From an uncultured Acidobacteriota bacterium (lineage in GTDB: Bacteria; Acidobacteriota; Thermoanaerobaculia; UBA5066; Gp7-AA6): 64,000 nucleotides of DNA. Position numbers and translations under genes: made by a program. Under the pieces are notes generated by a model. That model did not search any database. It saw only the letters and a program-made list of their open reading frames with translations, and was not told the DNA's origin. How positions within the stretch are numbered: the stretch's first letter is position 1; every line of letters begins with the position of its first letter. Where the stretch lies: positions 158,477 to 222,476 of the forward strand of contig CAWHTA010000005.1 in NCBI GenBank assembly GCA_963832145.1, given 5' to 3'. Shown here piece after piece: positions 49-48,460 of the stretch.

Positions 49-810
49 TCAGAACTCGAGCTGGCCCGAAAGGTCGAGCGGGACGGGGACGTCTCCTCGC
101 GGGAGGCGGACGGTCAGGGTGCCGGAGAGCCGCGCCGGTAGGCTTCCGCCGCCGAGGATCCCGCTCCCGGCCGCGCCGAGAAGCTGGCCGTGGTCCACGT
201 CGATCGGGAGGAGAAGCGTGCTCTCCTGGCCGCGCGCGCAGGAGCTTTCCGCGCGTCTGGCCGGTGCCGACGACCCGCGCTCCGGAGGTGAGCCGGTATC
301 GGGTCGACGCGATCGTCAGCGGGAAGGCGAACGGGTTCCGCACGGTGAGGACGGCCTGCGCGGTGCTCTCGCGTGAAACCGACGTCGGTCACCTCGACGG
401 ACGCGAGGCGCAGGAACCGACCCGCGGTCTCCTTCTCCCCTTCCACGCCGATGTCGTCCCACCGCGCCGTGCCGGACCACTCGACCGGGCGCGCCCGCGG
501 CGGTCCGTCCCGACAGCCGGTAGTCGAACGTCTGCGGGCGAAATCGGTTCGCCCAGTCGGAGGGAACGTCCGCGTAGCGGAGCGTCACGGGGAGGCGGAG
601 GCGATCGCCCGTTGCCTTCGCCTGAGAGGTCACGGGTACTTCGGCGGCCGATCCGTTGATGGAGAGTTTCCCGGTGAAGGCCCCGGTGCCGGCCCCCTGT
701 GCAGGCCCGACGAGGGTGGCGGAGAACGTGTCGGCGGGGCCGGGCCGGACGTCGATTTCGACCGGGCGCGCGAGGGTCGCGGCGAGGAGCGTGAGAAGTA
801 GAATCTTCAT
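49..810 (-). pseudogene. LEA_2 (LEA14/NDR1-like) secreted protein; reading frame broken about 3 times
   Basis: ATG at 810 gives an [14 protein letters not shown] signal. The continuation is split over three minus frames (ORFs 316..1737, 114..446, 44..343) and my own translation of 49-240. The core [28 protein letters not shown]...STLLLPIDVDHGQLL resembles an LEA_2 domain. Stop TGA at 49-51. Confidence 0.5.
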
Positions 811-850
811 CGGGAGGGGAAACGCCCGCGGGCCGCGCCCAATTCCGCGA

Positions 851-2464
851 TCACATCCGGAAGACGCCGAACTCGGTCTCGGGGATCGGCGCGTTGTAGG
901 CGGCGGAGAGGGCGAGCGCGAGCGCCGTGCGCGTCTCGGCGGGATCGAGGACGCCGTCGTCCCAGAGCCGCGCCGTCGAGTAGTACGGGTTACCTTCGAG
1001 CTCGTACTTCTCGCGCGTCGGGCGCTCGAACTCGGCGACCTCCGCCGTCCGACATCGCCGGCTTGCCCGCGCGCGCGAGCTGGTCCTGCTTGACTGTCGA
1101 GAGGACGGCCGCCGCCTGCGCGCCGCCCATGACCGAGATGCGCGCGTTCGGCCACATCCAGAGGAAGCGCGGGCTGAAAGCGCGCCCGCACATCCCGTAG
1201 TTGCCGGCGCCGAAGGAGCCGCCGATGACGACGGTGAACTTCGGCACGGCGGCGTTGGCGACCGCGTGGACCATCTTCGCGCCGTCTTTGGCGATGCCGC
1301 CGCGCTCGTAGTCCTTGCCGACCATGAAGCCCGTGATGTTCTGGAGGAAGAGGAGCGGGATCTTCCGGCGCGCGCACATCTGGATGAAGTGCGTCGCTTT
1401 GAGCGCCGACTCCGAGAACAGGATCCCGTTGTTCGCGACGATCGCCGATCGAGAAACCCGAGATCCGTCGCGCGAAGCCGCAGACGAGCGTCGTCCCGTA
1501 GCGCGCCTTGAACTCGTGGAAGCGCGACCCGTCCACGAGGCGCGCGATCACCTCGCGCACGTCGTACGGCTTGCGGACGTCCCGCGGGAGGATCCCGTAG
1601 ATCTCCCTCGCGTCGTAGAGAGGGTCTTCGGGCTCCTCGCGGTCGGCGGGCAGCGTCTTCGACGCCGCCGAGGTTGCCGACGATCGAGCGGGCGATCTCG
1701 AGCGCGTGCGCGTCGTCCTCGGCAAAGTGGTCGGCAACTCCGGAGACGCGGGTGTGCACGTCGGCGCCCCCGAGGTCCTCCGCGGAGACCTCCTCGCCCG
1801 TCGCCGCCTTGACGAGCGGCGGTCCCGCGAGGAAGATCGTTCCCGTCCCCTTGACGATCACGGCCTCGTCGGACATGGCGGGAACGTAGGCGCCTCCCGG
1901 CCGTGCACATTCCCATGACGACGGCGACCTGCGGAATCCGCGCGGCCGACATGCGCGCCTGGTTGTAGAAGATCCGGCCGAAGTGGTCCCGGTCCGGGAA
2001 GACGTCGGCCTGGAGCGGAAGGAACGCGCCGCCCGAGTCCACGAGATAGACGCACGGCAGCCGGTTCTCGAGCGGCGATCTCCTGCGCGCGGAGGTGCTT
2101 CTTGACGGTCATCGGGTAGTACGTGCCGCCCTTGACGGTCGCGTCGTTCGCGATGACCATGACCTCGCGGCCCGAAACCCGCCCGATCCCCGTGACGAGG
2201 CCCGGCGCCGGGCGCGTCGCCCTCGTACATCCCGTGCGCCGCGAGCGGCGACAGCTCGAGGAACGGGCGAGCCCGGGTCGAGCAGCGCATCGACGCGGTC
2301 GCGCACGAACATCTTGTTCTGCTCGGCGTGGCGCTCGCGCCCCGAGCCCCCCGCCCGCGCTTTCGCGAGCTCCTCGCGCAGGCCGCGAACAGGGAATCCA
2401 TCGCGGCGGCGCGCTCGCGGAACTCGGGCGAAGAGGCGTCGATTCGCGAGCCGAGGACGTCCAT
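851..2464 (-). pseudogene. mccB: Methylcrotonyl-CoA/propionyl-CoA carboxylase carboxyltransferase (beta) subunit; at least 8 frame switches
   Basis: Carboxyltransferase segments are scattered over all three minus frames. Examples: [17 protein letters not shown]; [15 protein letters not shown]; [28 protein letters not shown]; [32 protein letters not shown]; [30 protein letters not shown]; [32 protein letters not shown]...[13 protein letters not shown]; C-terminus [17 protein letters not shown]...FGVFRM. Confidence 0.8.
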
Positions 2465-12816: not shown

Positions 12817-13773
12817 TTAGGGACCTCGCCGGTCGCGACCGAGATCGAACGGCAGGGTGACTCCGACCTCAAAGGCCCGCCCCGAGTGCGTGTCCGTACC
12901 ACTCACGTACTCGACGTACGACGCGAACAGCTCGACGTTCTTGAGCTGGTAGGCCAGTCCCGCTCCCAGGTGAAAGAAGTTGTCGCGAAGCAGGCGGTCG
13001 TGTTGCTCAATCCGCTCCGGGGTGTCCGCGTCTCCGGGCGGAAGGAGGTCGGAGGGCGGAGGCGAGCCCAACCGAAGGCCGCCGTGCGTGCGCTGCCACG
13101 CGGCGAACCCCCGCGAGTATAGGTCCCGATTGAGCTGATAGCCGACCTCCACGCGGACGTTGCTCCGGTCGTTCCGAATGTCGATCACGCGTTCCACGAA
13201 GGCGTAGGAGTAGCGGCCCTGTACGGAAAGCTTCGGCGAAATCCCGTCGAGCCGCTGTCCGGCGTCCACGGCGATGCGCACTTCCTCCAGGTTCCTTCCG
13301 ATCACGGCCTCCCCCCGGTACTCGTAGTCGTGGCTCGGCACCCCCACGGAGACCGAGGGCGTGAGAGCGAAGGCCGATCCGGTCGACCCGACCGCGTTGT
13401 ACCGGGCCGTGAGGCCGAAGTCCTGCCATCCGCTGTGCCAGCAGTGGCACTGGTCCCTCGGAAAAAAAGGAACGAAGGGCGGGGGCGGGTCCTGGCTCGT
13501 CCACTTCGAGAACACGTAGGGCAGCGCCGCCGACAGAGTGAACCGGTCGGTGATCGCGTATTCGACGTCCAGGTAGATGGCCGCGTTCGAGCTCTCTCCG
13601 CTCTCGATCAGCGTGCCGTCGGTCAAGCGGTGTCCGGTGTTGTCGATCCAGTGGAACGAGAGACTGACGGACCCGACCCCGGCCGGCGCGACCCAGGACT
13701 GCGCCGCAGCCGGATCGGACATCGCGAGAACGCCGGCGACGGCGAGCGATCCAGGCGTCAACGCCCTTCTCAT
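12817..13773 (-). CDS. Putative outer-membrane beta-barrel protein
   Basis: Signal peptide ending AAAQS, alternating amphipathic beta-strand pattern, aromatic-rich turns. The family is not identified with confidence. Confidence 0.5.
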   Translation of the reverse strand: MRRALTPGSLAVAGVLAMSDPAAAQSWVAPAGVGSVSLSFHWIDNTGHRLTDGTLIESGESSNAAIYLDVEYAITDRFTLSAALPYVFSKWTSQDPPPPFVPFFPRDQCHCWHSGWQDFGLTARYNAVGSTGSAFALTPSVSVGVPSHDYEYRGEAVIGRNLEEVRIAVDAGQRLDGISPKLSVQGRYSYAFVERVIDIRNDRSNVRVEVGYQLNRDLYSRGFAAWQRTHGGLRLGSPPPSDLLPPGDADTPERIEQHDRLLRDNFFHLGAGLAYQLKNVELFASYVEYVSGTDTHSGRAFEVGVTLPFDLGRDRRGP

Positions 13774-16365
13774 GAGGGGAGCCCCACGCGGCGGACCGCC
13801 TCGCGGAATCTCGGATCGTCGCGAACCGCGTCCCAGGCGCGATCGACGTTCAGGAACACGAGCCCGGGACTTCGCTCCTCGAATGCGGAGTCGATGTGAG
13901 CGAGAGCGCTCTCCCGCTCGCCGAGCCGGGCGTAGGCCCTCGCGAGGTCGAGCGGCGAGGTGTAACCGCCTTCTTCGAGCCGGCCGCGCAGGCCGAGCAG
14001 CTCCCTCTCGGCGAGGGCTCGATCAATGCGGCGATAGCCCTCCAACCCCCGTGCAGTCTCCAGGAGCTCGCGAAGCGAGTCGTCCCCGGCCGCGTCGAGA
14101 ATCCTTCGGAGGGAAGCGATTGCCTCGTCGAAACGCCCCTGCTTGCGACGGACCTCGGCGAGTCCGAAGTACGCGCGCGGGTCGCTTCGGGCGACGCCGA
14201 TGACGCTTTCGTAGAGTCGCCCCGCCTCGTCGAGCTGGCCGCCGAAGAGGAGGAAGTCGGCCTCCTTGAGAACGTAGACCGGACTCAATGGGTCGAGCTC
14301 GCGCGCCCGCCGGGCGAATTGCAGCGCTTCGTCCGTTCGGCCGATAGCCCAGCGCTGCAGGGCGCGCGAGGTGAGGAAGTCGGGTAGAAACCCGCCTCCC
14401 CGCGACTCCAGGGCCCTCTTCCACGCCCGCTCGGCGCCGACCCAGTCCCACTGGAAATAGAAGAGCGCCGACGCGGCCTCGGAGTGAGCGTCCGGGAGGT
14501 CGGGGTCGAGATCGAGGGCTCGGCGTACGAGCTGGGTGACGTTCGACCACGCGTCCGCCGGCTTTTCGTAACCGTCGATCGCCATGATCGCGTGCGTCGT
14601 CGCAAGCGCCCCGTAGGCGAGGGCAAACGTGGGGTCGCGGGCCAGGGCCTGCTGGAGGAGCCAGCGCGCGTCCAGGTAACCGTCTTCGGTCTCGCTTCCC
14701 CAAGAGTGAATGGCGCGGAGGTAGAGCTCGTAGGCGGCGGCGTTCGCGGTGGGACCCCTCGAACTGGCGCCGATCCTCGCCCGTCAGCTCGAGGCGCACT
14801 CCGTCGTGGACGATCGACGCAACGATTTCGTTCCGGGTGCCGAGAACGTCCCCGGCCGCCCGGTCGTAGGAGTGGCTCCACAGTCGTGCGCCGGTCGCGA
14901 CGCTCACGAGCTCCGCCTCGATGTGGACCCGTCCGGAACGGCGCTCGACGATCCCCGCGACGACGGCATCTGCCGACAGCCGCCGGCCCGCTTCCCGCGG
15001 ATCGATCCTCTGGCCCTTAAAGTTCGAGACGGCGCTGCGCGGTTTCACTGTCAGGGATGGGAGGCGGGAGATTCCGCGGATCAGGCTCTCAGTGATGCCG
15101 TCACAGAGATACTCGACCTCTTCGTCCTGAAGCGGGTTCGAAAACGGCAGCACGGCGAGCGAACGGACCACCGGGCTCCGCGGCCAGAGCTGCCAGAAGG
15201 CGATTCCGACAGCGGCGGTGACCACCGCGGCGACTCCGAGCCAGGCCGCGCGCCGCCGCGTCAGCCTTGACCGCTCGCTCTGTGCCTGAGTCTCGCGAAT
15301 GTGACGCAGCTCGGCCGCGAGGTCTCGCGCTCCGGGATACCGGGCGACGGGGTCCTTGGCGAGGCATCGCCCGATCACGGCGCGCAGAGCCGCTGGGACG
15401 GCCGGATTCACGGTCTGGATCGCGCGCGGAGCTTCTACGCGGATCACTTCCAGTGTCCCCGTCCGGGTGTCCCGATCGAAAGCCCTCCTGCCCGCGAGCA
15501 TCTCGTACAGGATCAGTCCGAAGCTGAACTGGTCGGACGCCGGCCCTGCCGGACGACCGGCAGCCTGCTCGGGCGACATGTAGCCGACGGTCCCGAGGAG
15601 ACTTCCCACTTCGGTGACGCCCGACTGACCTGCGAAGGCCGTAGCCGCCGGAGTCGCGAGCGCTCCCCCGCGCTCGCTCTTGGCGATCCCGAAGTCGAGC
15701 ACCTTGACGTGTCCCTCCGGAGTGACCATGACGTTGTCCGGCTTGAGATCGCGATGCACGATCCCCCGGCCGTGCGCGGCCGCGATCGCCTCGGCGAGCG
15801 GCACGGCGAGGTCGAGCGCGGCCTCCAACGACAGAGCGCCGCCCGCGAGGAGCTCGCGGAGCGTCCGCCCTTCGACGAGCTCCATCGCGATGTAGGCGAC
15901 GTCGCCCTCTTCACCGACCCCGTAGATGGTGACGATGTTCGGATGGTTGAGGCCGGACGCCGAACGCGCTTCCTCCTCGAATCGCCGCGAAGAGCCGGGG
16001 TCGAGCGCGACGTCCGCCGGCAGCACCTTGAGCGCTACTTCCCGGTCGAGCCGCACCTCCCGGGCGCGGTAGACCTCGCCCATTCCGCCGGCACCGAGAA
16101 GCGAAAGGACGTCGAAGCCCGCGATTCGCCGACCCGCGAGCGATCCTCCGGAGTCGCGGGCGATCGCGTCGGCCGCCTGCTCGAGGGCTGGCCTCTCGAG
16201 GAACCGGGCGGATTCGTCCTCGTAGGCGAGCAGCGACTGCACCTCGCGCAGCAGCTCTTCGTCGCCGGCACAAGCCTCCTCGAGGAACGCGGCACGGTCG
16301 CCCGATGTGCGCTCGAGGGCCGCGTGATAAACGCGGTCGACCTTCTCCCAGCGGTCAGCGGTCAT
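13770..16365 (-). CDS. Ser/Thr protein kinase - TM - TolB_N-like periplasmic module - TPR repeats; one frameshift near 14757
   Basis: N-terminal kinase (GAGGMGEVYRA, HRDLKPDNV, DFGIAK, GTVGYMSPEQ), a TM segment (AAWLGVAAVVTAAVGIAFW), then LAVLPFSNPLQDEEVEYLCDGITESLI. After ...RRQFE the frame changes; my translation gives RGPTANAAAYELYLRAIHSWG..., which joins ORF 13770..14585 (TPR region). Confidence 0.8.
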
Positions 16366-35626: not shown

Positions 35627-36242
35627 CCGGGGCCTCGAGTTTCGCTTCGAGCCCCGCTTTGACCGCCGGCCACTCGTCGTCGAGGATCGAGTAATAGATC
35701 GTGTCGCGCACGCGGCCGCTCCACGTCAAGGCGTTTCTTCGGAGAGATCCTTCTTCCTTTGCGCCGATCCGCTGGATCGCCGCGCGGGACTTCGCATTCA
35801 GGACGTCGGTCCGCAGCTCGACCCGAATGCAGCCGAGAACCTCGAAGGCGTGCCGCAGCATCAGGTACTTCGCCTCGGTGTTCACGGCCGTGCGCTGCCA
35901 GTCTCGCCCGATCCACGTCCAGCCGATCTCGACCCGGCGGTCCGCGGCCGACCAGGTCGCGAACCGCGTTCCGCCGATCGCCTTCCCGTGCGGGAGAGCG
36001 ACCGTGGCGAAGGGCATTGCCGTTCCCGTCGCGCGCGCCGCGAGCGCCCTCTCGATCCACGCGCGGAGCTCCTCCGGCGAGAGCGCGCGCTCGGTGGTCC
36101 AGCGCCAGATCTCTTCGTCGAAAGCGACCCGGCTGAGATCGTCGAAGTGATCGTGGGTCAGTGGCTCCAGACGGACGTGAGCGCCCTGGAGAACGACGGG
36201 TTCGAGGGGTCCTTCGATTGTCAACCTCGGCCTACGTGTCAT
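35601..36242 (-). CDS. GNAT-family N-acetyltransferase (RimJ/RimL-like)
   Basis: LEPLTHDHFDDL...IGWTWIGRDWQRTAVNTEAKYLMLRHAFE...RVELRTDVLNAKSRAAIQRIGAKEEG. The proposed ATG (36242) lies inside a family A repeat, so the start is uncertain. Confidence 0.75.
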   Translation of the reverse strand: MTRRPRLTIEGPLEPVVLQGAHVRLEPLTHDHFDDLSRVAFDEEIWRWTTERALSPEELRAWIERALAARATGTAMPFATVALPHGKAIGGTRFATWSAADRRVEIGWTWIGRDWQRTAVNTEAKYLMLRHAFEVLGCIRVELRTDVLNAKSRAAIQRIGAKEEGSLRRNALTWSGRVRDTIYYSILDDEWPAVKAGLEAKLEAPVSAPRTSG

Positions 36243-36318
36243 CCCGAGCGAAGCGAGGGACCTGGTTCCCTTCCGAAGGAGGGACCAGATTCCTCGTCGC
36301 TCCGCTTCTCGGAATGAC
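36238..36318. repeat. Family A palindromic repeat, full copy
   Basis: gtcatcccgagcgaagcgaggga...tcctcgtcgctccgcttctcggaatgac. Confidence 0.75.
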
Positions 36319-36344
36319 AGCCTTTCGGCCACCGCCTTTGCAGA

Positions 36345-37184
36345 TCACCGGCTGTCTCCGCCGAGAATGATCGGGAGCCCGTTCTTCCCGCTCCCGATGA
36401 CGACGACCTTCGAGTTCTGGCTCATCGCGAGCTTCTCCGTCGCCTCGATTCCCTTCCACTCGAGCAGCGCCGGGCTGATCCCCGCGGCGACGATCCGCTG
36501 GAAATCCGCGATTCCCTGCGCCTCGATCCGCTTCCGTTCCGCCTCCTGCGTCTCCTTCTGGAGCACGAACTTCATCTGTTCGGATTCCTGTTCGCGCTTC
36601 AGCTTCTCCTGGATCGCGTTGGCGACAACGTCGGGGAGGCCCATCTTCCGGAGGAGCACCGCCTCACCGATGATGCCGCGACCGCCGGCCGTCCGGCGGA
36701 ACAACTCGAGGGTCTCCTTCGCGATCTTTTCGCGCTCCGCGGAGTACAGGACCTTGGCCTCGTAGGAAGCGGTGACCTCCCGGATTGCCGAGCGGATCTG
36801 CGGCTGCACCGCGATCTCCTCGTAGTCCCTTCCGATCGTCCGGTAGATGTCGTCGGCCTTCTCCGGGTCGAGGCGGTAGAGGAGCGATCCCTCGAGGTCC
36901 ATGATGAGGCCTTCTTTGGAGGGAACCTCCGCGGTCTCCTTCACTTCCCGGGTCTTGACGGACATCTTCGCGACGCGAGTGAAAGGGATCACGAATCGGA
37001 CGCCGGGCGGAAGGATGTCGGAAGAGACTCTCCCGAAGAGATCCTTCACGCCGACGTGCCCGGCCGGGATGACAGTGATCGGACTGCCGATGAGAAGAAC
37101 GATCAGAACGACCGCGATGACTGCGAAACGTACGACGCGGCGTCCCGACGGAAAGGGCGGGACGATCTCGAAAGGCTTGACCAT
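36345..37184 (-). CDS. SPFH/band-7 (prohibitin/HflC-like) membrane protein
   Basis: 279-aa ORF with an N-terminal TM. VIPAGHVGVKDLFGRV..., coiled-coil KREQESEQMKF...EAERKRIEAQGIADFQ. Confidence 0.85.
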   Translation of the reverse strand: MVKPFEIVPPFPSGRRVVRFAVIAVVLIVLLIGSPITVIPAGHVGVKDLFGRVSSDILPPGVRFVIPFTRVAKMSVKTREVKETAEVPSKEGLIMDLEGSLLYRLDPEKADDIYRTIGRDYEEIAVQPQIRSAIREVTASYEAKVLYSAEREKIAKETLELFRRTAGGRGIIGEAVLLRKMGLPDVVANAIQEKLKREQESEQMKFVLQKETQEAERKRIEAQGIADFQRIVAAGISPALLEWKGIEATEKLAMSQNSKVVVIGSGKNGLPIILGGDSR

Positions 37185-37239
37185 GAAAAATCCTCCTCTT
37201 GGGTGCGAGGAGGACGCTATCAGCTACAGAGACCAGTCC

Positions 37240-37301
37240 GGGGTCTGACCCCCCTCGCGGCCGCTTCCCGATCCGCTTTCAGGCTGAGGGGGTCAGATCC
37301 C
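37240..37301. repeat. Family B-related inverted repeat (GGGGTCTGACCCCC ... GGGGGTCAGATCCC)
   Basis: 14-nt arms with 1 mismatch, separated by ~33 nt. Lies between the SPFH start and the ribBA stop. Confidence 0.6.
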
Positions 37302-37359
37302 GCGCAGCGCACCCAGCCCGGGCGCGCAACGCTCGCGACGCCGGGACGGGAAGAACGCC

Positions 37360-38577
37360 TCAGACCATCTTCAGCAGGTGTCCCATCTTGTTCTTCTTCG
37401 CCTCCAGGTACTTCCGGGACCCGTCCGTCGGGTGCACCTCGAGGGGAACGCGCTCGACGATCTCGAGCCCGTATCCCCCGATCGCGACATACTTGGATGG
37501 GTTGTTCGTCATGAGGCGCATCTTGCGGACCCCGAGGTCACGCAGGATCTGCGAGCCGACGCCGTAGTTGCGGATGTCGGGCGGGAATCCGAGCTTCTCG
37601 TTGGCCGACACCGTGTCGTGACCCTCGTCCTGGAGCTCATAGGCCTTCAGCTTGTTCACGAGTCCGATGCCCCGGCCCTCCTGGAGGAGGTAGAGAAATA
37701 CGCCGGCTCCCGCCTCGACGATCTTCTCCATCGCGAGCGCGAGCTGGGCGCCGCAGTCGCAGCGGCTCGAACCGAAGATGTCCCCGGTCAGGCACTGGGA
37801 GTGAACGCGCACGAGCACGGGCTCATCCTCGCGAATGTCGCCGTGCACGAGAGCGATGTGCTCCTCGTGGGTGACGTCGCTCCGGTACGCGTGGAGGCGG
37901 AACTCCCCGAAGCGGGTCGGTAACCGGGGAGCGGCGACTCGCTGGACGAGCCTCTCCGTCTCCATCCGGTGGCGAATGAGGTCGGCGACCGTGACCATCA
38001 CGAGCCCGTGCTTTTCGCAGAACTGGGCGAGCTCGGGCACGCGCGCCATGGTCCCGTCCTCGTTCATGACTTCGCAGAGCACGGCGGACGGATCGAGACC
38101 CGCGATCCGGGCGAGGTCGACCGAAGCCTCCGTCTGGCCCGCCCGCTTCAGGACGCCGCCCGTCTGCGCTCTCAGGGGGAACATGTGGCCGGGGCGCGCC
38201 AGATCGCTCGGCCGGGTGTTGGGGTCGATGGCGGCCATCACCGTCGCGGCCCGGTCGGCGGCGGAGATTCCCGTCGTCACCCGCCCGCGGGCTTCGATCG
38301 AGACGGTGAAGGCGGTACCGAAGTTGGACGTGTTCTCGTCCACCATGAGCGGGAGCTCGAGCTCGTCGCAACGCTCCTCGGTGAGCGCCAGGCAGATCAG
38401 ACCCCTGCCCTCCCGCGCCATGAAGTTGATCGCGGCAGGGCTGACCTTCTCCGCTGCGAGCACGAGGTCGCCCTCGTTCTCGCGATCCTCATCGTCGACG
38501 ACGACGACGAAGCGCCCGGCCTTCAGCTCCTCCACGGCCCGTTTGATCGGGGCAAAAGGGGCTCGACTGTCGTTCAT
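37360..38577 (-). CDS. ribBA: Bifunctional 3,4-dihydroxy-2-butanone-4-phosphate synthase / GTP cyclohydrolase II
   Basis: ATG at 38577 (or 38586). [15 protein letters not shown] (DHBPS) and [24 protein letters not shown] (GCH II). Confidence 0.9.
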
Positions 38578-38639
38578 CCGTCTCATTTTCCCACATCGTT
38601 TGGCGTGGTACGCAGTACGACAACGTTTGCGAGACCTCG

Positions 38640-38800
38640 CCGACAATTAGCGTCCGGGCCGCTAACTTTTGTCCATCGGGCGTGAATTTCGCGCCGGAGA
38701 TCGGCTGACCACTCCGCAGCCGCGGGTCGCAACACACGGCAGCGTATGAAAGAGGGCGCGGTTCGAGCCGTGGTACGCCGCGTGAAGTAGTCATCCTCGA
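38640..38800 (-). promoter_or_regulatory. Candidate FMN (RFN) riboswitch-like leader of ribBA
   Basis: ~250-nt ORF-free leader. The minus strand reads ...cgacccgcggctgcggagtGGTCAGCcGATCtCCGGcgcgAAATTCacgCCCGAtGGacAAAAGTtagcggCCCGGAcG. This resembles the 3' half of the RFN consensus (AGCCCGCGAGC..GGTCAGCAGATCCGGTG.AATTCCGGAGCCGACGGT.AAAGTCCGGATG). I could not recognise the 5' half. Confidence 0.3.
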
Positions 38801-39043
38801 CGGACGACCAGAATCCGCACGTCACATCGCGGTGGCTGTCATCAGGCGCCCGTGACGGTCGAGAGCGGAAGGTCCGATGAGGACAGCTTCGAATCCGACT
38901 CAGAACGGGAATTCGCTAGGAGTCTCTCACTCGATGCACAGACTTTTGACGCCGACGGCAGACGATCCGCTCTTCGCACCCGCCAATCGCGGCGGCCGGA
39001 GGGAATCGACGTCTGTAGGCGTTGCAACAGAACCGGAGCCGAA

Positions 39044-42000
39044 ATGAAGTCAGGCGAAACACGGGGCCCTACACCGGGAGCTGGAACGGAATCGAGTCGT
39101 AAGGGAGCGGTTCGCGAACTGCTCGCAAGGGCGCGTCTCGCGGCCACGCTGGTGATGGGCCTTTGCCTCCTTTCGGTCGGTATCCCATCGGCGCCGGCGA
39201 GCGCCGAAGAGCGCGTCGCCCCGCAGCTCGTTCGGCGAGGCGACGCGAAGATCGCCGCCGTCCTTTCGATCTATCCCTCGATCTTCCCCCTCAGCTCCAC
39301 GAGTGCGGCGCTCGTCTGCGTGACGAACGTCAATGCGAATTCGACCGCTCGGCTCGAGCCGAATGACGTGTTCGTCGCGACGCTGGATGAGCTGGCGCTC
39401 GAAACCTTTTCGATGCTCTCTCCGATCCTGCTGGTTGATTCGGAAACACTGGAATCTTCCGAGTTCGTCGCCGCGGTTGACACCGTGAATCGGCGCCTCG
39501 TGATCACCTACGTCGGAGCGCCCGACGCTTTCGAGGCCGGGGACAGCATCTGCGCTGCTCTCTCGCTGAGCACGTCGAGCGTGCTGGGATCCCGGACGAT
39601 CCGCTTCGATATCCCTCCTTTTGAGTCTCGGTTCTCGGGTGGCAAGGATCCGTCTTTCCTCACGTTCGCGGTTGCTGTGATCGGGCCGACCATTCCGATG
39701 GGCCCGGCCGGTCCGACCGGCGCCGCGGGTGCTGATGGAACCAACGGCGTTGATGGCGCGACCGGTGCGACCGGGACGCAGGCGCGGACGGCGCACCGGC
39801 GACGGCGCTACCGGCGCTCAGGGTACGGCGGGCGTCGACGGATCAGACGGTGCTGGCGGCGCCACGGGCGCGGCCGGCGCCGATGGAACCAACGGAACGA
39901 ACGGAACCGACGGCGCGACGGGCGGCACGGGCGCAGCTGGTGCTGACGGCACCAACGGAACGAACGGTACCGACGGCGCGATGGGCGCTACCGGCGCCGC
40001 GGGCGCGGACGGAACCGACGGAACTAACGGAACAAACGGAACAAACGGCACCGACGGCGCGACCGGCGACACCGGTGCCACGGGGTCGGCCGGTACTGAT
40101 GGGACCAACGGAACAAACGGCACCGACGGCGCTACAGGTGCCGATGGAACTGATGGCCCGACCGGTGACACGGGTCCTCAGGGCGTAGCCGGTGCCGATG
40201 GAACAGTCGGCGCGACTGGCCCCACGGGCGCAGCGGGTGCCGACGGAATCAACGGAACGAACGGCACCGACGGCGTGACGGGCGACACCGGTGCCACGGG
40301 TGCGGTTGGCGCCGATGGGACCAACGGTATCGACGGAACCAACGGAACAAACGGGACCGACGGCGCGCCTGGCGCTGCGGGTGCTGATGGAACCAACGGT
40401 GCTGACGGCGCGACGGGCGCCACGGGCGCTGCGGGTGTTGATGGAACCAACGGTGCAGACGGTGCTGACGGCGCTGTTGGCCCCATGGGTCCGGCTGGCC
40501 CGGCTGGAGCCGACGGCGCAGCGGGTGCCGCGGGTGTAGACGGTGCGGCCGGTGTCGATGGTGCAGCGGGAGCCGCAGGCATCGATGGCGCGGCCGGTGT
40601 CGATGGGGCCCCAGGTGTCGATGGTGCAGCGGGTATCGCGGGCACTGACGGAACCAACGGAGCCGATGGCGCGACGGGTGATACGGGCGCAGCCGGAACC
40701 AACGGTATTGACGGAACCAACGGAACAAACGGCACCGACGGCGCCACGGGCGCAGCCGGCGCTGATGGAACCAACGGCATACGGAACAAACGGCGCCGAC
40801 GGAGCGACGGGCGACACGGGCCCGACTGGTGCCGATGGAGCAGTAGGTCCAACGGGTTCGACTGGCCCCGCTGGTGCCGATGGAGCGATTGGCGACACCG
40901 GTGCCCAAGGCGCAACCGGTGCCGACGGAATCAACGGAACAAACGGGACCGACGGTGCGACAGGCGACACGGGTGCTACCGGTGCGGCTGGTATCGATGG
41001 TGCAGCGGGTATCGCGGGCGCTGACGGAACCAACGGAGCCGATGGCGCGACGGGTGCTGCGGGTGCCGATGGCGCCGCGGGCGCCGATGGAACCAACGGT
41101 ACGGATGGCGCGACCGGTGCTACGGGCGCAGCCGGCGCTGATGGAACCAACGGTATCGACGGAACCAACGGAACAAACGGGACCGATGGCGCGACCGGCG
41201 ACACAGGCCCGACTGGTGCCGATGGAGCGGTGGGTCCAATAGGTCCGACTGGCACCGCTGGTGCCGATGGCGCGACGGGCGACACCGGTGCCCAGGGCGT
41301 AACCGGTGCCGATGGAATCAACGGAACAAACGGGACCGACGGCGCGACTGGCGACACGGGTGCCACGGGCGCGGCCGGTACTGATGGAACCAACGGAACC
41401 AACGGAACCAGGACGGTATCGACGGCCCGACGGGCGCTGCGGGTACCGATGGCGCCACCGGCGCAGCGGGCGCTGATGGAACGAACGGCACCGACGGCGC
41501 TACGGGCGCCGCTGGTACTGATGGAACCAACGGTATTGACGGCGCGACCGGCGCCACGGGCGCCGCGGGCGCGGACGGAACCAACGGAACGAACGGCACC
41601 GACGGCGCGACTGGCGACACGGGTGCCACGGGCGCGGCCGGTACTGATGGAACCAACGGAACGAACGGCATCGACGGCGCGACGGCGCCACGGGCGCAGC
41701 TGGCGCTGATGGAACCAACGGTATTGACGGAACAAACGGGACCGACGGCGCGACCGGCGATACAGGTGCCACGGGCGCTGCGGGTGCTGATGGAACCAAC
41801 GGTACAGACGGTGCTGACGGCGCTGTTGGCCCAATGGGTCCGGCTGGCCCGGCTGGAGCCGACGGCGCAGCGGGTGCCGCCGGTGTAGACGGTGCGGCGG
41901 GTATTGATGGTGCGGCCGGTGTCGATGGAGCCCCTGGTGTCGATGGTGCAGCGGGTATCGCGGGCGCTGACGGAACCAACGGAGCCGATGGCGCGACGGG

Positions 42001-44622
42001 TGCTACGGGCGCGGCCGGAACCAACGGTACTGACGGAACCAACGGAACAGACGGGCCGACGGCGCGACGGGCGACACCGGTGCCACGGGCGCAGCTGGTG
42101 CTGATGGAACCAACGGTATCGACGGAACAAACGGGACCGATGGCGCGCCTGGCGCTGCGGGTGCTGATGGAACCAACGGTGCAGACGGTGCTGACGGCGC
42201 TGTTGGCCCCATGGGTCCGGCTGGCCCGGCTGGAGCCGACGGCGCAGCGGGTGCCGCGGGTGTAGACGGTGCGGCCGGTGTCGATGGTGCAGCGGGTATG
42301 CCCGGGCGCCGACGGAACCAACGGAACGAACGGCGCCGACGGCGATACGGGTGCCACGGGCGCAGCCGGTGCTGACGGAACCAACGGAACGAACGGTGCC
42401 GACGGCGCGACGGGTGCTACGGGCGCCGCCGGTGACTGACGGAACCAACGGTATAGATGGAACGAACGGATGCAGACGGCACCGACGGCGCGACGGGCGA
42501 CACGGGTGCCACGGGCGCAGCCGGTGCTGATGGTATCGACGGAACAAACGGGACCGACGGCGCCGACTGGCGCTGCGGGTGCTGACGGAGCCGACGGTGC
42601 TGACGGTGCTGACGGCGCTGTTGGTCCGATGGGTCCGGTTGGCCCGGCTGGTGCCGACGGCGCAGCGGGTGCCGCGGGTGTAGACGGTGCGGCCGGTGTC
42701 GATGGTGCAGCGGGTATCGCGGGCGCCGACGGAACCAACGGAGCCGATGGCGCGACGGGCGCTGCGGGTGCCGATGGCGCCGGTGCAGCGGGCGCCGACG
42801 GAACCAACGGAACGAACGGTACGGACGGCGCGACGGGTGCTACGGGCGCCGCCGGTACTGATGGAACCAACGGTATAGATGGAACGAACGGATCAAACGG
42901 CACCGACGGCGCGACGGGCGACACCGGTGCCACGGGCGCAGTTGGCGCTGATGGAACCAACGGTATCGACGGAACCAACGGAACAAACGGGACCGACGGC
43001 GCAGCCGGTGCCACGGGGGCGGCCGGTACTGATGGAACCAACGGTATTGACGGAACCAGCGGAACAAACGGGACCGACGGCGCAGCCGGTGCCACGGGGG
43101 CAGCCGGCGCTGATGGAACTAACGGCATTGACGGAACCAACGGTGCAGACGGTGCTGACGGCGCTGTTGGCCCCATGGGTCCGGCTGGCCCGACGGGCTC
43201 CGACGGCGCAGCGGGTGCCGCGGGTGTAGATGGCGCGGCCGGTGTCGATGGAGCACCAGGTGTCGATGGTGCAGCGGGTATCGCGGGCGCTGACGGAACC
43301 AACGGAGCCGATGGCGCGACGGGCGCTGCGGGTGCTGATGGAACCAACGGTGCGACGGTGCTGACGGCGCTGTTGGCGCCATAGGTCCGGTTGGCCCGGC
43401 TGGAGCCGACGGCGCAGCGGGTGCCACGGGTGCAGACGGTGCGGCCGGTGTCGATGGTGCTGCGGGAGCCGCAGGCATCGATGGCGTGGCCGGTGTCGAT
43501 GGAGCCGCTGGTGTCGATGGTGCAGCGGGTATCGCGGGCACTGACGGAACCAACGGAGCCGATGGCGCGGCGGGTGCCGATGGCGCCACCGGCGCAGCGG
43601 GCGCCGACGGAACCAACGGTACGAACGGCGCGGACGGCGCGACGGGCGACACGGGCGCTGCGGGTGCTGACGGAACCAACGGTGCAGACGGTGCTGACGG
43701 CGCCGTTGGCCCAATGGGTCCGGCTGGCCCGGCTGGAGCCGACGGCGCAGCGGGTGCCGCGGGTGTAGACGGTGCGGCCGGTGTCGATGGTGCAGCGGGA
43801 GCCGCAGGCATCGATGGCGCGGCCGGTGTCGACGGAGCCCCAGGTGTGGATGGTGCAGCGGGTATCGCGGGCGCTGACGGAACCAACGGAGCCGATGGCG
43901 CGACAGGTGCTGCGGGCGCGGATGGAACCAACGGAACAAACGGTCTCGACGGCGCGACGGGCGCCACCGGTGCCGCGGGCGCGGCCGGTGCTGACGGAAC
44001 CAACGGAACAAACGGCGCCGACGGAGCGACGGGCGACACGGGTCCGGCTGGGGCCGATGGAGCGGTCGGTCCGACGGGTCCGTCCGGTCCGGCTGGCGCT
44101 GACGGCGCTGCTGGCGCTGCGGGCGTCGATGGTGCTGCCGGCGTCGCCGGTGCGGCAGGTATCGATGGTGCCGCAGGTGTCGCCGGCGCGGCCGGTGCGG
44201 CGGGTGTCGCGGGTGCGGCCGGTGTCGACGGTGCCGCGGGTGTCGCGGGCGCGGCTGGTGCCGCAGGTGTCGCCGGCGCGGCCGGTGCGGCGGGTGTCGA
44301 CGGTGCAGCCGGTGCCGCGGGGGCCACTGGTCCGGCGGGTCCGACTGGCCCGAGCGGCTCGACGCTCGTCACCGGAACGCCGGCGGCCTCGGGGATCGCA
44401 CCGCTCCTGGGAACTCAGGTCACGACTTCGGCAACCTGCGCGGCTGGAAAAGTCCTCCTGGGTGGCGGGGCGAGGGTTGTTTCGTCGACTGGCAGTGACG
44501 CGGCGCTCGTCTCGTCCTATCCAAGTAGCACGACGACATGGACCGCGGTCGGCGAGACCACCGGGTTGCTCGGCTTGTTTCAGACGTTCACGGTCACGGC
44601 CTACGCGCTGTGCAGCCAGTAG
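39044..44622 (+). CDS. Giant secreted collagen-like (Gly-X-Y)n protein, ~1,860 codons; 11 frame breaks in this assembly
   Basis: GGAG lies 5 nt upstream of ATG 39044. Signal peptide ...[25 protein letters not shown], then a unique ~190-aa N-terminal domain. G-X-Y periodicity runs from 39701 to 44364 and is read from ORFs 38852.., 39729.., 40543.., 41834.., 42470.., 43486.. plus my own frame tracking. A unique 85-aa C-terminal domain ([12 protein letters not shown]...[10 protein letters not shown]) follows, then TAG 44620-44622. Confidence 0.8.
39701..44364 (+). repeat. Coding 9-nt periodic repeat (~518 GXY triplets) organised in ~10 mosaic super-repeats
   Basis: The GADGAVGP[M/T/I]G marker recurs near 40465, 40831, 41218, 41815, 42190, 42610, 43155, 43360, 43695 and 44045. 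~200-nt blocks such as 40481-40690 and 43710-43920 are about 95% identical. Confidence 0.85.
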
Positions 44623-44660
44623 GTCGGTAAGCGATTCAACGGGTCAGACAGTCCTGAACG

Positions 44661-44695
44661 CGCGCGGCCGACTTCGGGTCGGCCGGCGCGATTTT
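44661..44695 (+). terminator. Putative rho-independent terminator of the collagen-like gene
   Basis: cgcgcggccgac-ttcgg-gtcggccggcgcg forms a 12-bp GC stem with one bulge, followed by ATTTT. Confidence 0.5.
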
Positions 44696-44826
44696 CAGAG
44701 TTTGGGGAAGATTCTAGGAAGAGGTCGAAGTCGAAAGCATGGTCGCGCCGTACGATCCGCCCTGGAGTACGCGGTACGGCCCAGCGACCGCTCAAAGGGC
44801 TCCGGCGGACTCCGACCGGGTGGGGT

Positions 44827-46518
44827 TTAAAAAACCGCCGGCTCTTCGTAAGTCGCAAACACCTCGCGCATCACGTCGGAGATCTCGCCGACCGTCGCAT
44901 AGGTCTTGACGGCCTCGACAAGGGGCGGCATGACGTTACGGCCGTCCGCGCACGCTTGGCGCAGAACGGCGAGCGCGGACACGACCGCCTTCCCATCCCT
45001 CGAGCGCCGAAGCTCGGCGAGGTCCAACTTCTGCTGGTCCTCCACGGACTCGTCGATGTAAAGCGTGTCGAGCGGCGCCTCGTTCTCCTCGATGAATTCG
45101 TTGACCCCGACGACGATCTTTTCCTTCGCGTCCACGGCACGCTGGTAGGCGTAGGCCGCGTCCATGATCTCGCGCTGGGGGAAGCCCGCCTCGATCGCTT
45201 CGACCATTCCGCCCAGGGCGTCGATGCGCCGGAAGTAGTCGAAGCAGCCGCGCTCCATCTTCGTCGTCAGGTCCTCGACGAAGTACGAGCCTCCGAGCGG
45301 GTCGATCGTGTTCACGACCCCCGACTCGTGGGCGATCACCTGCTGGGTCCTCAGCGCGAGCTTCACGGCGAAGTCCGAAGGAAGGGCGAGCGTCTCGTCG
45401 AGAGAGTTGGTGTGAAGCGAGTTCGTCCCGCCGAGTACGCCCGCGAGCGCCTGGAGCGCCGTCCGAACGACGTTGTTGTACGGCTGCTGCGCCGTCAGGG
45501 AACATCCCGCCGTCTGCGTGTGGAAGCGGCACATCCAGGATCGCTCGTCCTTCGCACCGAACCGCTCCTTCATCGTCTTCGCCCACACGCGGCGTGCGGC
45601 GCGGTATTTCGCGATCTCTTCGAAGAAGTCGTTGTGCGCGTTGAAGAAGAAAGACAGCCTCGGAGCGAAGTCGTCGACGGCCATCCCCGCTTCGATTCCG
45701 TACTTCACGTACTCGACGCCGTCGCGCAGGGTGAAGGCGAGCTCCTGCAGCGCCGTCGAGCCGGCCTCGCGGATGTGGTAACCGGAGATCGAGATCGTGT
45801 TCCACTTCGGAACGTTCTTCGCGCAGAACGAGAACTGGTCGGTGATGAGCCGCATCGAGGGGCGCGGCGGGAAGATGTACTCCTTCTGGGCGATGTACTC
45901 CTTCAGGATGTCGTTCTGAAGGGTTCCCCCGACCTTCTCCCAGGGGGTGCCGTGCTTCTCGGCGACGGCGAGGTACATGGCGAGCGCGATCGGCGCCGTC
46001 GAGTTGATCGTCATCGACGTCGTCACGCGGCCGAGGTCGATCCCGTCGAAGAGCACTTCCATGTCGGCGAGCGAGTCGATCGCGACGCCGCACTTTCCGA
46101 CCTCGCCGCGCGCCATCTCGTGGTCGGAGTCGTAGCCATAGAGCGTCGGCAGGTGGAACGCCGTCGAAAGTCCCGTCTGACCGTGATCGAGGAGGTAGTG
46201 GAAGCGCTCGTTCGTCTGGCGGGCCGTCCCGTAGCCGGCGAACTGCCGCATCGTCCAGAGCTTTCCCCGGTACATCGTGGGCTGGACCCCGCGGGTGAAG
46301 GGGTATTTCCCCGGCCATCCGAGGTCTCGCTCCGGGTCGAAACCCGCGAGCGTGTCGGGTCCCGCGAGGGGAAGAACCTCCGCGCCGGAGACGGTCGTGA
46401 AGTCGCGTTTCCAGTGGGGATGACGCTCGAAACTTTTTTTTGCGGCCTCATCCCAGCGGCGCCGGCCTTCGCGGATTTCCGGGGGGACCGTCGGGTCGAG
46501 CTCTTCGTTCTTTCCCAT
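44827..46518 (-). CDS. Acyl-CoA (methylmalonyl-CoA-type) mutase large catalytic subunit, without a B12 domain
   Basis: ATG at 46518. [63 protein letters not shown]. It ends before any B12-binding domain. Confidence 0.9.
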
Positions 46519-46660
46519 CAGCTCATTCTGCTCTTTCCGAGGACACAATAGCCCAATCCCCTCAGTCATTTCCATTCGAACGTCCGGAGGTCCGTGGAAG
46601 GCATGAAAGATGCAACGTTCCTCTCGCGGCCATTTGGCCGAAAGCACAAGGAGGAACTTC

Positions 46661-47299
46661 ATGACGAAACGGATTACTTCTCTACTGGGGATTCTCGCGT
46701 TGGTGGCGTTCGCGGTGGCGTGCGCTCAGACCGATGCGGGGATCACGACCAAGGTCAAGACCAAGCTCGCGGCGGATGACACCGTCAAGGCGTATCAGAT
46801 CGACGTCGACACCAAGGACAAGGTCGTAACACTCTCCGGAAGCGTCGACAATCAGGCAGCCAAGGATCAGGCTGTCGCCCTCGCTCGCGGCACCGAAGGC
46901 GTCGCGGACGTAGTCGACAACATCACGGTTTCGGGCGGCGCGGCCGCAATGCCGGGTGATGCTCCGGCGTACGGCAGCGAAGGCGCGACCGGCGCACCCG
47001 CGCCCGGTGGCGAAGGCGACGCGGCGATGGGCGGCAACGCCCCGAACCCGGAGCCGGATCGACCGGCCGGAACGGTCATGGATGACGCCGCGATCACGGC
47101 GGCCGTCAAGGCCAAGCTTCTGGCGGACCCGACGGTTGGCGGTCTGAAGATCGACGTCGACACGCGCAATGGCGTCGTGTGGCTCACGGGTGATCACATG
47201 AACAGCCAGGCCGAGATCGACGCGGCGATCAAGATCGCCAAGGCGACCGAGGGCGTCAAGAGCGTCGAGAACAAGATGGTGGTTGGCGACAAGCACTGA
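46661..47299 (+). CDS. Two-BON-domain lipoprotein (OsmY-like)
   Basis: AAGGAGG lies upstream of ATG 46661. Lipobox AVAC. Two BON units (...[35 protein letters not shown] and ...[36 protein letters not shown]). Confidence 0.85.
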
Positions 47300-47344
47300 G
47301 GATTTGAAGAACGTCCGCCGGTGAAAACTGGCGGGTTTCTTAGA

Positions 47345-47373
47345 GGGCCAGGGAAACCTGGCCCTTGTTTTTT
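47345..47373 (+). terminator. Rho-independent terminator
   Basis: gggccagg-gaaa-cctggccc forms an 8-bp stem with a GNRA loop, followed by ttgtttttt. A weaker hairpin (ccgcc..ggcgg) lies just upstream at 47316-47335. Confidence 0.8.
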
Positions 47374-47383
47374 GGAAGACGGA

Positions 47384-48460
47384 CTACTTCCCCAAGACCG
47401 GAAGCAGCGCAGTCTTGGCCATTTTCGCAAGACCCTTGGCGGAGAACGGAAGACTCGACGACATGAAGCACGAGTGTGTGCACCAGCACTCGCGCTTCGC
47501 GATGCGGTGGCGCATCGCGTCGGCCTTCTCCGAGAACCACGCTTTCGCGAAGGACCAGCCGAAGTCGCGGATGTTCCCGATCTCCCACTGCACCTCGCAG
47601 AGCGAGACCGTTCCCTCGGGGTTCAACACCCCCGAGACGGTCCCGGCGTAACAGGGGTAGACCATCCGCTCCTGGGAGAGCGTCTCGAGCTCCGCTTCCC
47701 GAGCGGCGACCTTCAGGTTCTTGAGGATCGGCCGGTACCGGTCGAACCCCGCCCAGTAGGGCTTGAGCGTCGAAAGCGCTGTCGCGTACTCCGCCGCCGT
47801 CAGCGGCCGGATGGACGAGTCGGGAAACGGCGGGCGGAGAAGCTCGAAAGAGTGGAAGTTGATCTCCGGGAAGTTCGCGGCAACCCAGCCCGTGATTTCC
47901 GGCAGGTCGTCCCGGTTGAATGACGCGAGGACGGTCTGCACGTTCACGAGCAGGCCCGAGCTCCGCCGCTTGAGCGCCGCGAGGCGCCGGTACGTTTCTT
48001 CGACGCGGGGAAAGTTCCCCGGCGCGCCGCGGATCCGGTCGTGGCGTTCCCCGAGGTGGTCGAGCGAGAGTCCCACGGTGAACGTCTGGCGCTCGTCGCG
48101 GCGGGACTCGAGGACGTGCGCTACGGTCGACTCGACCTGCTCGGGAAGGAGCGAATTCGTCGGCATCGTGACGTTCGACGTTTCGTGCCGGCGGTAGAGA
48201 AGGCGCGTGATGTCCGGCAGGTCGCGATTGAGCGTCGGCTCCCCTCCCGTCAGCACGACGCTGTAAAGAGAGGGCAGGTCCGCGAGCGCGCGGTCGTAGT
48301 CGGCGAGCGACATCTCGAGGTGCCGATTGACGTTCAGGTGATCCCAGTAGAAGCACGTGACGCACTTCGAGTTGCAGAGGTTGGTCATCCCGAGGATCAG
48401 GTACCGCGGGAGCGTCCTGCGGCCGCGCACCCACTGCGAAGCGAGAGCGAGCTCTTTCAC
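47384..48460 (-). CDS. Radical SAM protein with SPASM/twitch-like C-terminal Cys cluster
   Basis: The GTG at 48460 overlaps the upstream stop (GTGA). LILGMTNLCNSKCVTCFYW (CxxxCxxC), VLTGGEPTL, and C-terminal CYAG...LCEV...CWCTHSC. Confidence 0.75.
   Translation of the reverse strand: MKELALASQWVRGRRTLPRYLILGMTNLCNSKCVTCFYWDHLNVNRHLEMSLADYDRALADLPSLYSVVLTGGEPTLNRDLPDITRLLYRRHETSNVTMPTNSLLPEQVESTVAHVLESRRDERQTFTVGLSLDHLGERHDRIRGAPGNFPRVEETYRRLAALKRRSSGLLVNVQTVLASFNRDDLPEITGWVAANFPEINFHSFELLRPPFPDSSIRPLTAAEYATALSTLKPYWAGFDRYRPILKNLKVAAREAELETLSQERMVYPCYAGTVSGVLNPEGTVSLCEVQWEIGNIRDFGWSFAKAWFSEKADAMRHRIAKRECWCTHSCFMSSSLPFSAKGLAKMAKTALLPVLGK

Follow-up and report, generated by a model that had tools for sequence, protein, structure and literature searches.

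A 64,000-nucleotide (nt) stretch of contig CAWHTA010000005.1 from an uncultured bacterium of the Acidobacteriota (class Thermoanaerobaculia; assembly GCA_963832145.1), referred to here as the window, carries at 39044-44622 of its forward strand a collagen-like gene whose central Gly-X-Y tract is built of near-identical blocks that can lie kilobases apart. What kind of protein does such a gene encode, and is the repetition the outcome of recombination within the gene or of the assembly from which it was read? A three-frame translation of 38700-45000 resolved one gene of about 1,860 codons, consisting in this order of a signal-peptide-like segment, a beta-sandwich domain (the N-domain), the Gly-X-Y stalk and a C-terminal domain with two cysteines (the C-domain). 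The repeat mosaic is real, and we consider that the tract is probably the stalk of a single secreted, likely trimeric, collagen-like surface fibre, and a genuine mosaic shaped by recombination.

The stalk was delimited by tracking GGN codons at a periodicity of 9 nt. This gave in-phase chains of 9, 109, 70, 30, 42, 28, 15, 4, 10, 24, 64 and 112 triplets (517 in total), set apart by ten frame shifts and a single in-frame gap of 3 nt (Table 1). Glycine occupies the first position of all 517 triplets, with no substitution within the chains; at the X positions A, T, P, V and I predominate and at the Y positions D, A, T and N. Neither Lys nor Glu is found in the stalk, Arg appears only at the break sites, and Pro fills 47 of the 1,034 X and Y positions (4.5%), 30 of these 47 prolines lying within the markers described below. 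Single chains match the collagen family PF01391 in Pfam with E values of 2e-50 to 2e-52, and once the ten small indels are stepped over the tract is a long uninterrupted Gly-X-Y run of the kind that characterizes PF01391 proteins. Every repeat period in the tract is a multiple of 9 nt.

The original prediction had described this tract as a mosaic of about ten super-repeats, a picture that the markers, the repeat blocks and the order of the triplets all bear out. The marker GADGAVG[P/A]xG opens each of the ten super-repeats (starts in Table 1); the ten positions first proposed for it were correct to within 5 nt, the irregular spacing of 200-600 nt is in fact 206-595 nt, and the larger gap of some 1,350 nt between Met-type copies is found as 1,349 nt between those at 40461 and 41810. 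A super-repeat begins with a proline cluster, GADGAVGP-x-GP-x-GP, and ends with a Thr/Asn/Asp block whose length varies, most of them having in between an Ala/Val/Ile block (GAAGVDG...GAPG...GIAG). Along a per-triplet class track, the Pro cluster and the Ala/Val/Ile runs, with one GAPG in mid-run, alternate with the Thr/Asn/Asp runs. The two alternating cassette types initially proposed are thus a fair simplification, but the DNA of the markers falls into three families. Seven copies are Met-type, 84-100% identical over 63-117 nt (the one at 43357 reads GAIGPV); two are Thr/Ile-type (40828 and 41215, 86-90% identical), in super-repeats that carry GADGA[I/T]GDTGAQG in place of the GAAGVDG block; and the last one is a terminal variant.

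A way to distinguish common descent of the copies from mere constraint on the peptide is to look at the DNA. The tract compared with itself by BLASTN gave many long matching pairs, among them 40389-40874 and 43618-44096, with 88% identity over 486 nt at a distance of 3.2 kb. For 40481-40690 and 43710-43920 an identity of about 95% had been claimed, and we found 96.2% without gaps (to 43919). Redundant words of eight triplets numbered 47, against none after shuffling the 517 triplets, and redundant 54-nt DNA words 23, again against none in the shuffles. We have also counted identical codons at identical residues, taking the expectation from the codon usage of the gene itself. The unit at 40461 shares the codon with that at 43690 in 70 of 78 identical residues (29 expected, P about 5e-22), with that at 43357 in 65 of 70 (25 expected) and with that at 42187 in all 36 (13 expected). 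Synonymous identity so far above expectation shows that the copies are related by recent common DNA descent, and not by peptide constraint alone.

The relationships among the copies are those of a mosaic. The best non-self partner of each 63-nt window switches every 60-150 nt; along 40436-40667, for example, the partner is found successively at offsets of +1726 (100% identity), +3229 (100%), +2645 (94%) and +1322 (95-97%). In the seven Met-type units, once aligned, a near-identical core of about 170 nt is common and is followed by different downstream joins, with length differences that are deletions in multiples of 9 nt, and among the informative sites of these units 90 of 435 pairs fail the four-gamete test. 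A patchwork of this kind is what unequal crossing-over and gene conversion should produce among units that are in frame. The synonymous identity, the partner switching and the four-gamete failures therefore back the proposed recent intragenic duplication or gene conversion, as does the likeness of copies within the genome (see below). In mechanistic terms, unequal crossing-over and gene conversion, acting repeatedly between in-frame units of multiples of 9 nt, would both have built the mosaic and keep its copies homogeneous; in other bacteria this mechanism is what gives collagen-like regions their length polymorphism. A phase-variable contingency locus was ruled out, repeat periods and unit differences all being multiples of 9 nt; the frame breaks are scattered indels of 1-2 nt and not changes in repeat number.

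Table 1. Coordinates of the features of the collagen-like locus and its flanks (positions in the window).
Feature	Position	Strand	Description
ribBA	37363..38646	-	Left flank of the insert
N-terminal part	39044..39700	+	Signal-peptide-like segment followed by beta-sandwich domain of about 165 residues; in-frame open reading frame
N-domain	39206-39700	+	About 165 residues, beta-sandwich
Collagen-like (Gly-X-Y)517 tract	39701..44364	+	12 in-phase chains, 4,653 of 4,664 nt covered
Leader segment without marker	39701..40460	+	Thr/Asn/Asp-rich, cassette-2 (Thr/Asn/Asp) type
Super-repeat 1	40461..40827	+	Met-type marker, Ala/Val/Ile block, Thr/Asn/Asp block
Super-repeat 2	40828..41214	+	Thr-type marker, GDTGAQG variant; 86-90% identical to next unit, offset 387 nt
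Super-repeat 3	41215..41809	+	Ile-type marker, long Thr/Asn/Asp block
Super-repeat 4	41810..42186	+	Met-type
Super-repeat 5	42187..42604	+	Met-type; first 117 nt 95% identical to 40461
Super-repeat 6	42605..43150	+	Met-type
Super-repeat 7	43151..43356	+	Met-type; shortest, 70 residues
Super-repeat 8	43357..43689	+	Met-family variant; 95% identical to 40461 over 210 nt
Super-repeat 9	43690..44049	+	Met-type; partner of super-repeat 1, 3.2 kb apart
Super-repeat 10	44050..44364	+	Terminal variant, GAAGVAG/GAAGVDG run
Ten frame breaks	span 39782..43357	+	39782-39803, 40783/4, 41413/4, 41684, 42061, 42305-12, 42440, 42477, 42568, 43357
In-frame 3-nt gap	42782-4	+	Between chains
C-terminal domain	44365..44622	+	85 residues, two Cys, plus stop codon at 44620-44622
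Methylmalonyl-CoA-mutase-like gene	44830..46662	-	Right flank; PF01642, E 6e-223

The most conspicuous defect of the tract is its broken reading frame. Compared with a close copy at another place in the tract, each of the ten breaks is an indel of 1-2 nt, in several cases a GGG shortened to GG. Residues foreign to the vocabulary of the stalk (R, C or a stop) are confined to the last one or two positions of chains, and away from the breaks there is no in-phase stop and no odd residue other than one Leu. Neutral decay should yield more substitutions than indels; the consensus of error-prone long reads yields indels with essentially no substitutions. Other genes of this assembly (3.47 Mb in 12 contigs, 89.6% complete) are also affected. 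The essential gene pheT (contig C2:714374-716339) occupies two frames, with the switch at about C2:714600; rpoC, which lies on that contig too, is intact. The gene mccB (carboxyltransferase, PF01039; window 316-2464, reverse strand) is spread over at least four open reading frames (ORFs) that lie in different frames and cover positions 100-145, 145-221, 232-297 and 298-429 of the profile. Here, in non-repetitive DNA, the frame breaks form a second dense patch. Ten indels without a single Gly substitution, together with the broken pheT and mccB, lead us to read the breaks of the tract as consensus errors, and it is quite probable from these sequences that they are such errors and not biology. 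The same indel background makes tract length and unit order provisional, in keeping with the uncertainty of the assembled length already pointed out in the original prediction. Programmed frameshifting was ruled out, since the shifts go in both directions, include lesions of 2 nt and have no common slippery motif.

If the assembly has introduced indels, it could have done more than that. Repeats may have been collapsed, expanded or mis-ordered and copies homogenised by polishing, in which case the printed mosaic would be partly an assembly product and the true gene would have the same vocabulary in another length or order. We consider this unlikely. The ten indels in 4.66 kb are far from evenly spread: nine fall within the 2.6 kb of 40783-43357, with 39804-40784 and 43357-44364 clean, a clustering that would fit ambiguous read placement during polishing. 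Several lesions look as if two copy variants had been merged (GGTGACTGAC against GGTACTGAC or GGTGCTGAC is one case), there are other error-dense patches in the assembly, and its 12 contigs and incomplete gene content fit an error-prone long-read assembly. However, no block of 85-100% identity exceeds 500 nt, and such blocks lie amid diverged sequence, where reads of a few kb should anchor their order. The collagen-like locus is the only one in the genome, which rules out a second copy or haplotig of the tract, and it has no alternative contigs; moreover, the independent short-read assembly of a relative in the same genus (G006, see below) has tandem units of its own, 95% alike over 3.6 copies. 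The concentration of the breaks in the repeat interior could also be taken as a sign of real population heterogeneity, with coexisting alleles of different repeat arrangements of which the consensus is a blend. The structure is prone to recombination and length polymorphism is usual in collagen-like regions (PMC4565658, PMC13688997), yet mccB, which is not repetitive, has dense breaks as well, and variation in repeat number is thus not required; we find this alternative quite unlikely.

The species of the same genus provide an external reference for the mosaic. In G006 (DASYUL010000104) an ortholog adjoins ribBA, has an N-domain 67% identical to the one described here and remains in a single frame for 913 residues until the contig ends inside the tract; its C-domain (69% identical) is found at the start of another contig. 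The tract of G006 uses the same GADGAVGP[T]GP vocabulary with a different period, the marker recurring every 12-57 residues (mostly 27-33) compared with 70-200 here, in tandem units of 99 nt. The Met-type markers are 93% alike within the genome studied here and only 65-69% alike on average (best 70-74%) to the copies of G006. Copies that are closer to each other than to those of the ortholog, with a different period, point to concerted evolution; this is the pattern expected of intragenic repeats evolving in concert, as seen with one relative compared and with repeat sequences taken from assembly consensus. It also points, at the level of sequence, to a repeat organisation that changes quickly. 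The same synteny is seen in GCA_039932775, a third relative, whose contig likewise ends in the tract, as happens in every short-read relative. When the last 378 residues were used as query against a protein collection, no same-species allele was found, the best match being 50-53% identical and the rest generic collagen-like proteins; nor were contigs encoding the called protein of the window found.

The collagen-like gene sits in a 6.2-kb insert (38647-44829) between ribBA and a methylmalonyl-CoA-mutase-like gene. Orthologs of ribBA are 87-94% identical in 11 of 13 matching genus relatives, with two more partial matches, and the same neighbour in one relative (L018) gives DHBP_synthase and GTP_cyclohydro2 in Pfam. 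In ten relatives the site is empty, the mutase-like gene adjoining ribBA with a gap of about 0-140 nt, and of the 14 same-genus species genomes that were searched, 13 have no detectable N-domain or C-domain. The gene is thus an accessory insert, present or absent within the genus. In the relatives with the empty site, ribBA comes after the mutase gene with almost no spacer. The closest relative (G002, 94% amino acid identity) has the empty site and the more distant G006 (about 90%) has the insert, so that several losses, or transfer within the genus, would have to be assumed.

An accessory gene with a broken frame might be a genuine recent pseudogene, the frameshifts being real mutations in something dispensable. 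Its absence from nearly all the genomes searched and the intact empty site in ten of them would agree with this, and there is a precedent in the inactivated bclA1 of Clostridioides difficile clade 2 (PMC13188886). We consider it very unlikely all the same, as ten indels have accumulated with no Gly-codon substitution in 517 triplets and no in-phase stop away from the breaks, and the frame-broken state of the essential pheT in this same assembly makes indels no evidence of decay.

As a recombination-shaped stalk, the tract would most likely serve a secreted trimeric surface fibre, its predicted function, with a stalk length set by the repeat tract. We infer a triple-helical fibre that would be about 440 nm long (1,551 residues of 0.286 nm each). 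It is plausible, on the analogy of BclA and Bucl (see below), that this length varies between strains or cells, and the other repeat period found in the genus relative agrees with such variation. Several points weigh against our interpretation. Unit order, copy number and indels are known from the assembly consensus alone, and polishing with multi-mapped reads could homogenise the copies and inflate their near-identity. A gene missing from 13 of 14 species genomes searched in its genus is dispensable, and an inactivated copy is possible. Finally, the triple helix is assumed, and with 4.5% Pro and no Lys or Arg both of its usual stabilisers are missing. Salt-bridge clamps, which PMC11923368 describes as a general code of collagen folding, could not be used by a stalk lacking Lys and Arg. 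Its only canonical stabilising triplets would then be those of the periodic proline clusters. They lead to a more ambitious version of the fibre, which we regard as doubtful: a purely acidic, functional rod of about 440 nm in which GPxGPxGP clusters every 70-200 residues would act as clamps for folding and stability, the alternating hydrophobic Ala/Val and polar Thr/Asn/Asp blocks would give it a banded appearance, and the super-repeat mosaic would be a selected design whose period and length are tuned by recombination.

Whatever its mechanical properties, the probable surface fibre can be compared with the known collagen-like proteins of bacteria. BclA, from the exosporium of Bacillus anthracis/cereus, is likewise a secreted fibre with central repeated Gly-X-Y cassettes and Thr-rich triplets. 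Its N terminus is a short targeting peptide and its C-terminal domain is of the kind described as C1q/TNF-like, whereas the protein described here has an N-domain of 165 residues and a C-domain of 85 with no BclA-type domain in Pfam, its host is a non-sporulating member of the Acidobacteriota and its tract of 517 triplets is many times longer. In B. anthracis the number of repeats in BclA differs by strain and sets the length of the filament, according to the part of PMC13688997 that cites Sylvestre et al. (2003), and BclA amplicons of 315-729 bp tell strains apart (PMC13688997). The Bucl proteins of Burkholderia combine conserved non-collagenous regions with collagen-like regions that are length-polymorphic by repeat number (PMC4565658). 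Like the present stalk, they have Pro-poor triplets in which Ala, Asn and Thr abound, GAN repeats being one case. Their tracts, however, number 2-63 triplets (PMC4565658), mostly of one repeat type, in contrast to the two-level mosaic of cassettes and super-repeats found here between other flanking domains. In C. difficile the collagen-like region of BclA1-3 varies greatly from lineage to lineage, with presence or absence by clade and some copies frame-broken (PMC13188886); those are, however, spore proteins of Firmicutes with pseudogenisation verified in many isolates, while the breaks reported here are most likely assembly errors.

The locus is thus a new and very long member of the length-variable bacterial collagen-like regions, with unrelated terminal domains, and not a new mechanism; as an example it is unusually long, poor in Pro and free of Lys and Arg. 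It extends the recombination-homogenised collagen-like architecture of pathogens (BclA, Scl, Bucl) to uncultured Acidobacteriota, on a much larger scale. Such a tract is fully traversed only in a long-read assembly. Metagenome-assembled genomes (MAGs) from short reads break inside genes of this kind and those from long reads add indels, with the consequence that annotated fragments under-report the proteins. A Pro-poor stalk without Lys or Arg is also a natural test case for the stabilisation of non-canonical triple helices.

The source annotation illustrates such under-reporting, a protein of 300 residues being called at the locus. The intergenic surroundings were searched as well: the Rfam scan of 36000-47500 detected no RNA family, the promoter scan found nothing, and the divergent intergenic region with the leader of ribBA (38647-39043) gave no Rfam match at E up to 0.1 and so no recognisable FMN riboswitch. 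Terminator-like predictions were discarded as artefacts of the repeat sequence on the antisense strand. Elsewhere in the window (13770-16365, reverse strand), two ORFs in different frames, one for a Ser/Thr kinase (14023-16365) and a TPR one (13770-14585), share about 560 nt, which fits a single gene frameshifted near 14.6-14.8 kb.

Regarding the terminal parts, the hydrophobic N-terminal segment has an ASA site and was judged by eye to be signal-peptide-like. Neither the N-domain nor the C-domain has a match in Pfam, NCBIfam or PDB sequence searches, and for this reason assignment to the BclA/BclB exosporium glycoproteins does not hold in Pfam or NCBIfam. A streptococcal Scl-type adhesin was ruled out for want of a C-terminal LPXTG cell-wall anchor; the C-terminal sequence has neither LPXTG nor a membrane segment. 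The AlphaFold2 model of the N-domain, from an alignment of nine sequences, is all beta with a mean predicted local distance difference test score (pLDDT) of 87, and Foldseek matched it to generic folds only (Ig-like adhesin, pilin and cohesin), at template-modelling scores of about 0.5. The C-domain folded poorly from the single sequence (pLDDT 48) and, apart from its counterpart in G006, shows a weak likeness (28%, E 4e-4) to the C-terminal end of a Bryobacterales homolog.

The N-domain defines a broader, uncharacterised fibre family in the Acidobacteriota, in which the same N-terminal beta-sandwich is followed by a collagen-like stalk, as here, or by a fibre stalk of another kind. Its profile matched 266 representative proteins, where the domain occupies the N terminus or lies close to it, and three short, distant contigs in metagenomes; the longest protein among the 150 matches listed has 1,005 residues, many being cut by contig ends. 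Relatives in this family have Pro-rich stalks of GPT, GPS and GPQ with about 30-205 triplets, shorter than the Pro-poor 517 triplets of the present gene. For the more distant homologs, such as a 926-residue protein of MAG MFD00822.bin.1.75 and a Bryobacterales protein of 517 residues whose two-Cys C-terminal end is weakly similar to the one described here, the figure is about 90-205. Stalks and C-terminal domains are diverse across the family, and several members end, as judged by eye, in a tailspike-type intramolecular-chaperone (Peptidase_S74-like) sequence.

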